A stretch of DNA of 64,000 nucleotides from assembly GCA_964016885.1 (NCBI GenBank), contig OZ024745.1:33976001-34040000 (forward strand), given 5' to 3'. The notes under the pieces are model-generated. The model was not told the DNA's origin, ran no database searches, and saw only the letters and a program-made list of their open reading frames with translations. Below, one piece after another: positions 4,181 through 62,200 of the stretch (positions are counted from its first letter, which is position 1; the number at the start of each line of letters is the position of its first letter). This DNA comes from Eledone cirrhosa. Its lineage: Eukaryota. The position numbers and the translations under genes are program-made.

Positions 4181-4311
4181 TAAGTATTGAAGTTTCCGTT
4201 GAAAATTGAAAAAGTCATAGGAGTGAAGAATGCTCTATGTAAGTACCAGAGCAAAATTTAATGTATAATAAACAGTACAATATAATTACCTCATTACCAG
4301 AGGTTTCCCGA
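4181..4311 (-). mobile_element. Truncated Penelope-type terminal fragment in (AT)n with hammerhead 3' half
   Basis: Minus strand reads GAAA-cctctgg-TA-atgagg, like GAAAccactggTAaatg at 20336; bounded by (AT)n. Confidence 0.4.
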
Positions 4312-5360
4312 ATATATATATATATATGAGTGTGTGTGTGTGTGTATGTGTGTATTTATACTATATACATTCCCAACTATCTTTATAAAAGTGTATATAC
4401 GTTTTCAAGTGTATATTCAAGTGTATATTCATATGTGTGTATATTTACATATTTTATGTATGAATAGTTTGAGAAGTTTATAATTCGGTTCGTATCTTCC
4501 TCTCTCTTTACCTTCCTTTTCATACACATATGTATAGATACGCCTGTGTATACATATGTGCGTGTGTATACATGTCTGTACACATATATCTCTGTATACG
4601 TGAATATATATATATATATATATATCTATCGATTTCCATCAGGTGTCGGCTTTTCTGTTTAACATAGAGGACTGGAAGTAGCTACATGCATATATACATT
4701 CTTACACAAACTCAAATATACATCATACACACGTACACATATACATACATATATATATGTAAATGTATACATTCATACATATATACATACAATCGTATAT
4801 TATGCGTAAATGTATACATACTTTCATACACACATATTTATATATATATATATACGTACTACATACATGCATAATACAGACACACAGAGACACAGACACA
4901 CAGAAACACAGAGAGACAGACACACACAGACACACACACACACACACACACACACACACACACACACACACACACACACACACACACACACACACACACA
5001 CACACACACACACACATATATATATATATACACATAGGCATTCATGCAAAAATATACACATGCGTTTAGCCGATTATCAGTCTATTTTGCTTCTCAGCAG
5101 TTTTCACTTTCCCATGTGTCGTCTGCTTCACTTGAGACGCTCATGTATGTATGTATGTATGTATGTATGTATGTATGTATGTATGTATGTATGTATGTAT
5201 GTATGTATGTATGTATGTATGTATGCATGCATGTATGTGTGTGTGTGTGTGTGTGTGTGTGTGTGTGTGTGTGTGTGTGTGTGTGTGTGTGTGTGTGTGT
5301 GTGTGTGTGTGTGTGTGTATATATTTATATATATATATATTGTATAAAATTTGTATAAAA

Positions 5361-5412
5361 TGTCCTGAAGTTGTTTCTAATTCTTCAGAAGGCTGAAAAC
5401 AACTTCAGGACA
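5361..5412. repeat. Hairpin with perfect 16-bp arms
   Basis: tgtcctgaagttgttt / aaacaacttcaggaca, 20-nt loop. Confidence 0.85.
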
Positions 5413-59189: not shown

Positions 59190-59225
59190 CTTTTGAAAAG
59201 CAGAAGAACTGCGAAACCGGTAAAG
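59190..59225 (+). ncRNA. Degenerate minimal hammerhead
   Basis: ctt-TTGAAAA-gcag(aagaa)ctgc-GAAA-ccgg-TA-aag; two core substitutions; in an island between (AT)n runs. Confidence 0.5.
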
Positions 59226-62200
59226 GAACCAAATAAATATATATATATATTTATTTTTAAAATAAGACTCCAGTTGCATTTTCGATTTTATCTTTTTTTC
59301 TTTATACTTTCACTCGTGTAGGACACCTCGGTTATTTTTCATTTTGTAAAAAACCTTCACTTTCTAATATATATATATATATATATATATATGTATATAT
59401 ATATATATATATATATATGTATATATATATATATATATATAAATATACATATATATCTGTATATACATTCATACATATACATGTATACAGATCTAAATAT
59501 ATATGTATATGTATATGTATATATATATATATATATATACATATACATATATATATATATATGTATATGTATATATATATATATATATATATATATATAT
59601 ATATACATATATATTTAGATCTGTATACATGTATATGTATGAATGTATATACATATATATATGTGTATATATATATATATATATATATATATATATATAT
59701 ATATACTTATATATATACATAGACAATTATTAAATATATAAATAGATAAATAAATGCCATTGTTAATTAATACATAAATCAACTAATACCTTAACACTTC
59801 ACACAAAGTAAAATATTTAGTTTTACTCATTTTCTAACCCAGAAAAAAAAAAAAAAAATAAAAAGGGAAAAAAATATTTTTTTCTTCCTAATAATCGTCT
59901 CTTTCTCCCTGTTTTCATATATATATATATATATATATATATATATATATATATATATATTCCCAATTTGTAGAAAACTTATAATGAAACGATCGTTTGG
60001 AAAGAGAGATGTATTTTAATTATGTCTCATATAAAATAATACAACTGGTCATCCGCAAAATACGTATAGTTAGCACCCCAAACGTATAATTGGGATTATA
60101 CTAAGGTATATCCAAATGTTTGTTGAGTGAGACGGAAGCCGGTCGGAGTATTGCTTAAAGCTTTCTCTGTTAATGTATTAAATATATATATATATATATA
60201 TATATATATATATATATATATATATATATATCTGTATATACATTTATACACGCATGTATATATATATACACACATATATATATATATACACATATATATA
60301 TATATATACACACATATATACATACACACATATATATATATATACACATATATATATATATACACATATATACATATACACATATATATATATATATATA
60401 CACACACATATATATATATACACACACACATATATATATATATATATACACATATATATATATACACACACACATATATATATACACACACACATATATA
60501 CACACACACACACACACACACATATATATATATATATATATATATATATATATATATATATATATATATATATACATATATATATATATACATATATATA
60601 TATATATATATATATATATATATATATATATATACATATATATATATATACATATATATATATATATATATATATATATATACATATATATATATATATA
60701 TACATATACATATATATATATATATACATATATATTTAGATCTGTTTACATGTATATGTATGAATGTATGTATGTATTTATCTATCTATCTATCTTATTT
60801 GTTCCCCCTTTGTATTTGTCCCCTTCTTTTGTGCCCCTGTGGCTAATAAAGAAACATATCTATCTTATTTGATCTGTATATATCCGCCATGCTTTCGTGT
60901 TTTCCAGTAAATCTCTACTTCTTGTAAACTGTTGACATCGCAGCTTTTACAATCTGCTGCTGTTGCTGTCACTATTGCAACTGCTGCTGTCGCTGCACTA
61001 CTACTGCATACATTTATTGCTGCTGATATTGCTGTTCTTGTTATGCAGTCTGGAAGCGATGTTTGGTATTTCTAAGGGAATTGTTATTCTCTTTCTTCAG
61101 GAACTTTCACCCCACCCCCCACTCATTTTGCGGTGTCTGTCGGTGGAAATCCTCCTTTTCTTCTTCTCCTTCTCCTTCTTCTTCTTCTTCTTCTTTCTTT
61201 TTACTTCTTTTTACTTCTGCTTCCGTCTCTTCACGCTCCATCTATTATTATTACTGTTTTCGTCGCTCTTGTCGTTTACGTTAAACCTTATTGCTGCTAC
61301 TGTGGTTGCTGAATTTCGATTTACAATCTTACAATGCCAGGTTCAATCCCACTGCCTGGCTGCTGGACAATTATCATTTACTATAGGCTCTGGTCCACCT
61401 ATGCATTATGAGTGTAATCCGACCAGCGGGAAACTATATGTAGCCTATTTCAGTAATACAAAAAGGCAGTTTTGTCACACAATATTTCACGATAATTATG
61501 TCTGAGTTTTACCTTAAGGAAACACATGTCTGTAGAATGCTTAGCCACTTGTATCAAACCTCTTCCATTGATTCAACGAAGTTCCATTAGTTTACTTCTA
61601 ACCTCTGTTGCTGCTATTTAATTGGTTGGTAGTTTATTTCCTTCAGCTATACACCAGTTGGTTACGACGATGTTTTGTTTGTACGATCAATAGGAAAGCC
61701 TGTGCGTGAAATTAACATTGAAAATACACGTGTATCCTTAACGTAGCCCAGGGAGATTCAGCGTGGCTTTGATTATTGGTACAACTAATTAATGTTTTTG
61801 TTTCTTTTGCAGCAGAATTAATAAGAGCGAACTGAATTAAAGTGTCTTGCTTAAGGACCAAACACGCCGCCCGGTAACTCAAAGGGCTAATCCGGTCTAT
61901 TGCACACACACACGCACACGCACACGCACACGCACACACACTGAGTCACATTTATTCTAACTGATAGAATATTATCAGATGTCTTGCTTATTGTTATTAC
62001 TGTTGCTATTATCAACAATGTAACTATTCATACTGTGGTAATATCATTGCCACTGTTAATATATCCCTACTGCTGCTACTGCTGCTATTGCTACTGCTAC
62101 CACTGCTGCTCTTTTTCAATACTACCTTATTTGCTATTTCTTTCTCCACAGCCTTTTCTTATAACTACCACAGTTGTTACATTTATTTTTTAATGTATTG

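Follow-up and report, generated by a model that had tools for sequence, protein, structure and literature searches.

In a 64,000-nucleotide window of the Eledone cirrhosa genome (assembly GCA_964016885.1, contig OZ024745.1, positions 33,976,001 to 34,040,000, numbered here from the first base), the short islands lying inside (AT)n microsatellites are very probably 3′-end remnants of several endonuclease-bearing (EN+) families of Penelope-like elements (PLEs) residing in (TA)n, with fold-back arms that probably arose at insertion and hammerhead ribozyme motifs that were carried along. Insertion is likely to have taken place into (TA)n microsatellites that already existed. The window is animal-type DNA of 34% G+C with 142 rows of tandem repeats; pure (AT) runs of five or more units make up 9.6% of it, and of its 56 long (AT)n blocks 14 are in contact with a recognised unit. 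Nine sequence-unrelated families can be counted by their anatomy, two with coding bodies (PLE-1 and PLE-2) and the short families F1 to F7, and the 17 units scored for their (AT)n ends total ~6.8 kb of the 64 kb. The original prediction of a diverse, PLE-derived and (AT)n-associated population is borne out by the PLE proteins, by these nine families and by the scored units, each of which has an end at (AT)n.

Two coding bodies bounded by (AT)n

Two families had been read as retaining Penelope reverse transcriptase (RT) and GIY-YIG sequences, and both were found: PLE-1, with RT thumb, linker and endonuclease (EN) but no RT core, and PLE-2, which runs from RT motif 4 to the EN. PLE-1 (11979..13830, + strand) was recognised from its translation and from Pfam as a 5′-truncated, decayed PLE of the Neptune/Nematis type, and has (AT)n at both of its ends. 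Its translation, through broken frames, contains the RT thumb, a Cx4CxxC linker and a CCHH-type GIY-YIG domain, the RT core being absent by truncation, and the GIY-YIG endonuclease frame is located at 12741..13091 (+; Pfam PF01541, E 4.8e-5). Cys-linker and CCHH motifs are described as defining the Neptune and Nematis PLEs (PMC8557442). By its predicted Cx2-5CxxC linker and the CCHH residues in its GIY-YIG domain PLE-1 classifies with this pair, and the assignment stops there because the RT core is missing. Protein word-index searches with the PLE-1 EN and with its linker piece returned no relatives, and the linker piece gave a weak lead only in Atlas (eukaryotic clusters, PF26215; low recognition value).

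The terminal anatomy of PLE-1 introduces features that recur in several of the short islands. An inverted arm (11979..12158, −), 98% identical to 13303-13482, reaches inward to U4 of the hammerhead core and outward to an internal TA word. The minimal type I hammerhead itself (13298..13340, +) has a complete core, an extra nucleotide before helix II and a 2-bp helix III, and lies on the sense strand 3′ of the open-reading frame, ~205 nt past the stop. PLE-1 is like Neptune/Nematis PLEs in its linker, its CCHH GIY-YIG, a minimal hammerhead with the extra nucleotide and its (TA)n flanks, and unlike them in the loss of the RT core and in additional nested fold-backs of the 3′ terminus (13411..13828; 87% and 79%).

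PLE-2 (21449..23742, −) is a 5′-truncated, broken element with RT from motif 4, thumb and a GIY-YIG without CCHH, each of its ends lying 1 nt from an (AT) run of at least four units. Its GIY-YIG matches Pfam at 22252-22830 with E 5.5e-4 (below the curated cut-off), and tblastn with full-length relatives spans the RT-to-EN region (23622-22261, E 3e-51). Relatives number 3667 proteins at E ≤0.001 among 1.84 billion representatives; a protein word-index search with the PLE-2 EN found nothing, and a protein cluster look-up gave names for 0 of 10 proteins. The translation shows no CCHH, a CxCx5C linker, and CxxC and CxH near the EN end, all of them marks of the Hydra clade, of which listed members include Hydra-1_Obim and Penelope-n_HM (Craig et al. 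2021; PMC8557442), and published Hydra proteins in the supplement text of the same source share the PLE-2 RT motifs. The second linker Cys, invariant in 14 aligned relatives, is changed in PLE-2, and the DKT/RWK region of the N-terminal part of RT, in which DKT was seen in four full-length relatives, is lost. These predicted protein marks, rather than an RT phylogeny with named families, place PLE-2 in the Hydra clade. A profile of the 14 relatives run against six frames of the window matched PLE-2, gave a weak match to the PLE-1 EN and picked up one other stretch at chance level, so there is no further Hydra-type body in the window.

Past work attributes to Hydra-clade C-terminal EN+ PLEs a short RT and GIY-YIG without CCHH, a modified Cys linker and CxxC/CxH near the end, all shared by PLE-2 (PMC8557442). 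The same source gives (TA)n insertion for the clade nearly without exception (26 of 27 listed rows carry (TA)n), canonical hammerheads in the 3′ region, an inverted 5′-truncated copy in Penelope-13_HM, and a cephalopod member. PLE-2 differs in being truncated and broken, in the changed linker Cys, in a decayed hammerhead and in a tail of ~145 nt. Its inverted arm (23617..23742, +) is 99% identical to 21594-21718, and contigs of other PLE-2 copies from two runs (X1 record 8, X4 record 16) extend beyond the inversion junction with different sequence. The summed depth of contigs aligned to 20569-23742, which is not a copy number, increases toward the PLE-2 3′ end, in keeping with 5′ truncation. 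No RNA run was listed as containing PLE-2, which bears neither way on its expression. A decayed hammerhead-like motif (21705..21760, −), identified by eye only, keeps CUGANGA and has a changed GAAA box.

Fold-back arms, tails and ends at (AT)n

With simple repeats masked, the window contains 30 short-range inverted pairs compared with 0-1 in 20 shuffles; by reading, ~11 of these are pairs of copies of a family resembling short interspersed elements (SINEs) and one is the terminal inverted repeat (TIR) of a Mariner. PLE-type fold-backs are present in PLE-1, PLE-2, F1, F2, F4 and F5, their arms differing from their partners by 1-20%. The architecture that had been proposed for all islands, an inverted copy of a terminus joined to a forward copy, therefore holds for these families but not for F3, F6 and F7, and one island with an inverted terminus is the Mariner. 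Ends at TATA-like microhomology, also proposed, were recovered: in PLE-1, PLE-2, F1 and F5 the short arm halts at an internal TA-rich word that merges into the (AT)n, while the partner arm is 60-145 nt longer. This one-arm extension is the optional tail known for PLEs, and its restriction to one arm in four families supports a PLE origin. Each F1 arm matches the end of its own copy and not of other copies, and the arms look copy-specific from this and from the PLE-2 contigs that continue past the junction.

Ends were scored against 16 SINE-like copies from the same window. An end within 15 nt of an (AT) run of at least four units was found in 17/17 PLE-type units and 0/16 SINE-like copies, a Fisher p of 9e-10 that overstates the case because the units were partly picked for their (AT)n context and three fold-backs lying away from (AT)n without a complete hammerhead motif (15674-15830, 19279-19372 and 36480-36563) were left out. 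Both ends abut (AT)n in 9 of the 17. Additional copies of F1, F3, F4 and F5 were located by BLAST alone.

Fold-backs at fragile (AT)n might instead be artefacts of assembly or long reads, or products of hairpin repair, with the motifs in them arising by chance. The self-complementarity of (AT)n, a 100% perfect palindrome at 19372-19435 and the absence of enrichment of the bare CTGANGA word would suit such an origin, but the arms diverge, stop at element-specific sites, carry a tail on one side and recur in dispersed copies, full motifs exceed shuffles (below), and a contig carrying another organism label (run X7) also has (TA)n directly at the F3 end, which together leave this account scarcely credible.

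How the remnants formed can be outlined from what the window holds, namely the protein content, the motifs, the structure of the arms and their adjacency to (AT)n. The starting point would be elements such as the two bodies, which encode PLE RT parts and GIY-YIG and whose ends abut (AT)n. A GIY-YIG enzyme with a Cys linker would, as the literature describes, nick AT-rich DNA, and reverse transcription would be primed at either of two sites inside the element RNA, giving a long tailed end and a short end. Synthesis would mostly break off early, in many cases within or close to the hammerhead helices, and a template switch through 5-7 nt of microhomology would make the head-to-head arm afresh at insertion. 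The short arm ends at an internal TA word and fuses with the flanking repeat. The hammerhead would travel with the terminal repeat to which it belongs, and through decay of copies after insertion the motifs are now mostly partial or mutated. Nicking, priming and template switching, drawn from the literature and from inference, are the most likely steps.

By our own count, 9 of the 16 boundaries considered (5′ ends and inner ends of arms) lie within the hammerhead motif: at U4 (PLE-1 and the second F2 copy), around helix II (three F1 copies, the first F2 copy and the first F3 copy), at A13 (the first F4 copy) and, in PLE-2, 0-6 nt from the predicted cut of its decayed motif. This clustering is biased by the motif-based finding of copies and is a lead only.

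Several observations weigh against the interpretation of the islands as PLE remnants. F1 to F7 have no linked PLE reading frame within the window, where the Hydra protein profile finds no more relics, and their assignment to PLEs is inferred from shared anatomy. A simple fold-back within a single family does not account for F4, which has two opposed halves and copies of 94% identity. The terminal-repeat motif of PLE-2 (~21750), the best-classified body, passes no hammerhead scan. The 17/17 count is inflated by the choice of units, and tails of 60-145 nt exceed the 30-40 nt of the literature.

Hammerhead motifs and the short families

A descriptor of the minimal type I hammerhead requiring exact cores gave five matches in three families (PLE-1, F5 three times, F6), compared with a mean of 0.03 and a maximum of 1 in 100 locally shuffled windows. 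A decay-tolerant scorer, which permits one core change and a long helix III, gave seven matches at a score ≥18 against a shuffle mean of 0.16 and a maximum of 2 in 100, adding F3 at 24245-24295 (U4A, score 20) and F7 at 59190-59225 (U3-A8, score 18), the F7 motif being weaker than the other five complete ones at that score and a shuffle mean of 0.16-0.23. Six complete type I motifs are thus present in four families (PLE-1, F5, F6, F7), a fifth family, F3, keeps the fold with U4A, and those of F1, F2 and F4 are partial. Full motifs exceed the shuffled background, as the original prediction expected, but the bare CTGANGA word does not (27 versus a shuffle mean of 19.8, maximum 29). The intact hammerheads are predicted to self-cleave. 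Five of the six lie within 200 nt of (AT)n against a baseline of 36% of unmasked bases, distance alone being a weak test.

At least eight unrelated families had been proposed to share a CUGANGA/GAAA/UH motif. Nine can be counted by anatomy, but the motif part of the claim fails because four families are complete, the fifth is core-changed, F1, F2 and F4 are partial and the others were seen by eye; the by-eye motifs at 4220, 7444, 18298 and 21750 pass no descriptor. A very short or palindromic stem III is likewise found in part, palindromic in F5 and F7 and 2 bp in PLE-1 but long in F1 and F3. Matches at 49325 (within the reading frame of a long interspersed element, LINE), 57105, 57951, 45940 and 3272 were rejected as chance-level. 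Rfam at its gathering threshold gave 0 matches in the window, and so no hammerhead; at E ≤1, the 150 matches listed of 336 are microRNA-like or other simple-repeat matches and include no hammerhead.

The minimal descriptor was also applied to 78 external loci of Hydra-type relatives, where it matched the sense strand in 51/78 and the antisense strand in 4/78; 20 of the 78 have (TA)4 or longer within 200 nt after the motif and 10 carry an inverted repeat. A covariance model built solely from 26 external Hydra-type motifs, with rough E-values, placed motifs of the recognised families as the top 7 of its 15 matches: F6 (3e-5), the three F5 motifs (0.013-0.015), F3 (0.057), F2 (0.17) and PLE-1 (0.79). 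It misses F7, and the remaining matches are noise-like. Covariation among the 26 relatives, themselves picked by descriptor, amounts to 92 cells versus 22.9 in shuffled alignments; helix I of F5 is invariant across its three copies, and helix II of F1 shows one compensatory change by eye. Single-strand folding puts a structure other than the hammerhead at the energy minimum in two F5 copies and in F7 and F3, which speaks neither for nor against those motifs because such misses are common with a weak helix III.

F5 and F6 carry the motifs that score best with the covariance model. One F5 copy (19777..20067, +) consists of an inverted tail and a forward copy with a complete hammerhead at 19933-19998; another (24933..25377) is a 337-bp head-to-head fold-back with a tail on one arm only and complete hammerheads on opposite strands at 24984-25048 (−) and 25170-25234 (+); a third (27085..27167, −) is tail only. 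F6 is a single copy without fold-back (20190..20384, +) whose complete Hydra-type hammerhead at 20295-20355 (z −2.6) has a helix III differing from that of Hydra-1_oBim by a single central base. F7, also single and without fold-back (59109..59236, +), combines the U3-A8 variant with a palindromic helix III and a 3-bp helix I.

The intact minimal motifs with palindromic helix III in F5 and F7, together with the derivation of retrozymes from the pseudo-long terminal repeats (pLTRs) of PLEs (bioRxiv 10.64898/2026.07.22.740005), are what would recommend the retrozyme-like population originally proposed, in which transcripts of short hammerhead units undergo cleavage as dimers, form circles and return to (AT)n by insertion. 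A tandem arrangement of units is part of the definition of retrozymes (PMC7229834; bioRxiv 10.64898/2026.07.22.740005), but the window has no direct repeats of 150-450 bp in tandem whose successive units each contain a complete hammerhead, the sole direct cluster (F3, 20940-21430) consisting of partial copies with changed cores. The proposal fails because of this absence; in addition, the paired motifs of the fold-backs stand on opposite strands, so that a single transcript would be expected to give a long hairpin rather than a dimer, most motifs are broken, and tails and 5′ truncation fit target-primed insertion. Like non-LTR retrozymes, the window units are short, non-coding, PLE-related and equipped with a type I hammerhead, but they lack tandem direct units and a canonical motif in successive units, and we consider a retrozyme population very unlikely. 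Among the external Hydra-type loci, one (L003:2499-2964) combines a single sense hammerhead with two antisense hammerheads from a different family, identical to each other and spaced by 281 bp, the latter a possible true tandem, retrozyme-like pair.

F1 to F4 show the incomplete motifs. All four F1 copies lack the CUGANGA strand: one (6833..7006, +) joins an inverted long terminus to the forward 3′ half of a hammerhead-like fold, a second (14324..14494, +; fold z −6.9) has helices I, II and III, GAAA and GUC, a third (30545..30655, −) has the shortest forward part, and the fourth lies at 35307..35410 (−). At 14410-14477 the second copy forms a hammerhead-like three-way junction from which the core strand is cleanly lost, a loss that template switching at a 7-nt repeat common to helices II and III could explain. 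A chimera of two elements was considered for F1 and rejected, F1 being one terminus with its tail. F2 comprises a fold-back with GAAA..UH (7021..7098, +), assigned by eye, and a copy with (AT)n on both sides that starts at U4 of the core (30775..30828, −; the covariance match above). F3 includes a copy that starts in loop II and ends at (AT)n (7239..7295, +), the cluster of three partial direct copies (20940..21430, +), and the best copy (24137..24315, +), with a full type I fold and a 4-bp helix III; its core reads CAGANGA in 3/3 core-bearing copies (21054, 21369, 24250). F4 occurs at 19372..19732, with a perfect 64-bp palindrome of the terminus at 19372-19435 and two opposed partial hammerhead-like halves, and at 51236..51558, where the palindrome is missing. 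The F4 composite as a whole spans 19143-19733 and 51191-51658, with its halves in opposite orientation, and a separate 94-bp fold-back containing a core-like word (19279-19372) adjoins the first copy.

Some of these short families (F3, F4, perhaps F1) could be non-autonomous PLE derivatives that spread like SINEs with PLE proteins acting in trans and an impaired or absent ribozyme. The constant CAGANGA of F3 beside a whole fold kept in one copy would suit this, as would the summed contig depth of F3 in run X1 (~400,000-550,000 versus ~30,000-100,000 over the PLE-2 terminal repeat, neither a copy number), the finding of F4 twice as the same composite, and the report that pLTR sequences suffice for integration in trans (PMC3846280). 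F1 and F3 copies nevertheless vary in their 5′ ends and junctions, as truncation products do, and local duplication may have produced those of F3 at 20940-21430, so that we regard such trans-mobilised derivatives as unlikely. A more specific form of the idea, speculative and still rather unlikely, is that F3, possibly with F4 and F1, has been mass-amplified as a non-autonomous PLE derivative targeted to (TA)n, in which the hammerhead fold survives but catalysis is lost (through U4A in F3 and through the missing core strand in F1) and insertion boundaries cluster inside the hammerhead. If true, the PLE hammerhead would serve the reverse transcriptase mainly as a structural landmark, marking where it stops or switches template, and not act as a nuclease; mini-elements of this kind would form a measurable share of the (AT)n loci of this genome.

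Unproven islands were recorded at 4182..4311 (+; a helix-II-like hairpin with changed core boxes and no match in any hammerhead scan), 7444..7494 (+; core and helix I present, GAAA broken, covariance E 9.5) and 18240..18310 (−; by eye, adjoining (AT)n). At 3783-3800 (+) and 4630-4650 (−) a core-like word is followed almost directly by GAAA, as if helix II were deleted, and this too is unproven. Additional degenerate fold-backs without a scoring hammerhead lie at 5361-5412, 15674-15830 and 36480-36563.

Relation to known systems and neighbouring elements

Most of what the remnants display has precedent. Metazoan genomes are reported to hold large heterogeneous sets of minimal hammerhead families, mostly as truncated copies standing alone, and to include the U3-A8 variant and pairs on opposite strands separated by 100-700 bp (Cervera and de la Pena 2014; PMC4209133), and the window motifs are like them in all of these respects and in their palindromic helix III, but differ in the long helix III of F1 and F3, the U4 to A change of F3 and the missing core strand of F1. 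Inverted pLTRs, junction palindromes, microhomology and tails are described for PLEs (PMC3846280), and in vitro work, which also shows AT-rich cleavage, explains the optional tail by two sites within the RNA at which RT can start (PMC11167929). The head-to-head arm, the palindromes or microhomology at junctions and the tail at one end match these descriptions, the tails of the window (60-145 nt versus 30-40 nt) being longer. In the one PLE assayed, hammerhead cleavage is reported to be protein-dependent and dispensable for insertion (PMC11167929). A link between transposable elements and microsatellites, including Penelope, has been argued in shrimp (PMC7878876), and for Octopus vulgaris a repeat annotation lists 31 recently active Penelope-like families, the word ribozyme being absent from its accessible text (PMC13282606).

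(TA)n targeting, hammerheads and inverted 5′-truncated copies are already described PLE behaviour, and the window holds no new ribozyme class or retrozyme system. A literature search, outside which most subscription papers and Repbase lay, turned up no catalogue of hammerhead relics of this kind in (AT)n at the level of a genome. Lunse et al. 2016 reportedly treat PLE hammerhead dimers, and forms with U4A or a long helix III might already be among the variants that they list. The addition of unannotated families to known PLE clades is of modest importance; it shows how dense PLE relics can become in an (AT)n-rich animal genome. Repeat libraries may miss such relics or mislabel them as SINEs, as miniature inverted-repeat transposable elements (MITEs) or as microRNA-like hairpins, and the many short copies with mappable boundaries could serve questions about the in vivo role of the PLE hammerhead and the origin of inverted arms.

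The remaining repeats of the window belong to other classes. The Mariner-type DNA transposon at 16222-17136 has 101-bp TIRs 94% alike, an internally deleted transposase (HTH_48, HTH_32) and (AT)n on both sides; its candidacy as a PLE fold-back was rejected on its Pfam matches. The SINE-like family of ~200 bp is represented by 16 or more copies, many of them in clusters, and no copy ends within 15 nt of (AT)n (9508-10209, 11401-11595, 14853-15375, 31210-31575, 37838-38037, 52516-52715, 54112-55096, 56337-56541 and 63265-63385). Summed contig depth is greatest over a 40-bp stretch of this family, and a search for the family pattern in metagenome contigs found no host DNA. A second, older tRNA-like SINE family is present at 6540-6620, 18883-19102, 36585-36658 and 61825-61875, two copies carrying a non-hammerhead CTGACGA word. 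A LINE remnant with an RT fragment is located at 49184-50369 and 10820-11284, its 3′ part with C2H2 zinc fingers being duplicated at 97% identity, and a second LINE fragment lies opposite at ~50428-50990. A 48-bp element is 98% identical between 11636-11683 and 51587-51634, each copy adjoining (AT)n or (ATGT)n, and at 35411-35763 a small cassette is repeated three times within an (AT)n array with periods of 94-122, a slippage-type duplication of an interrupted microsatellite.

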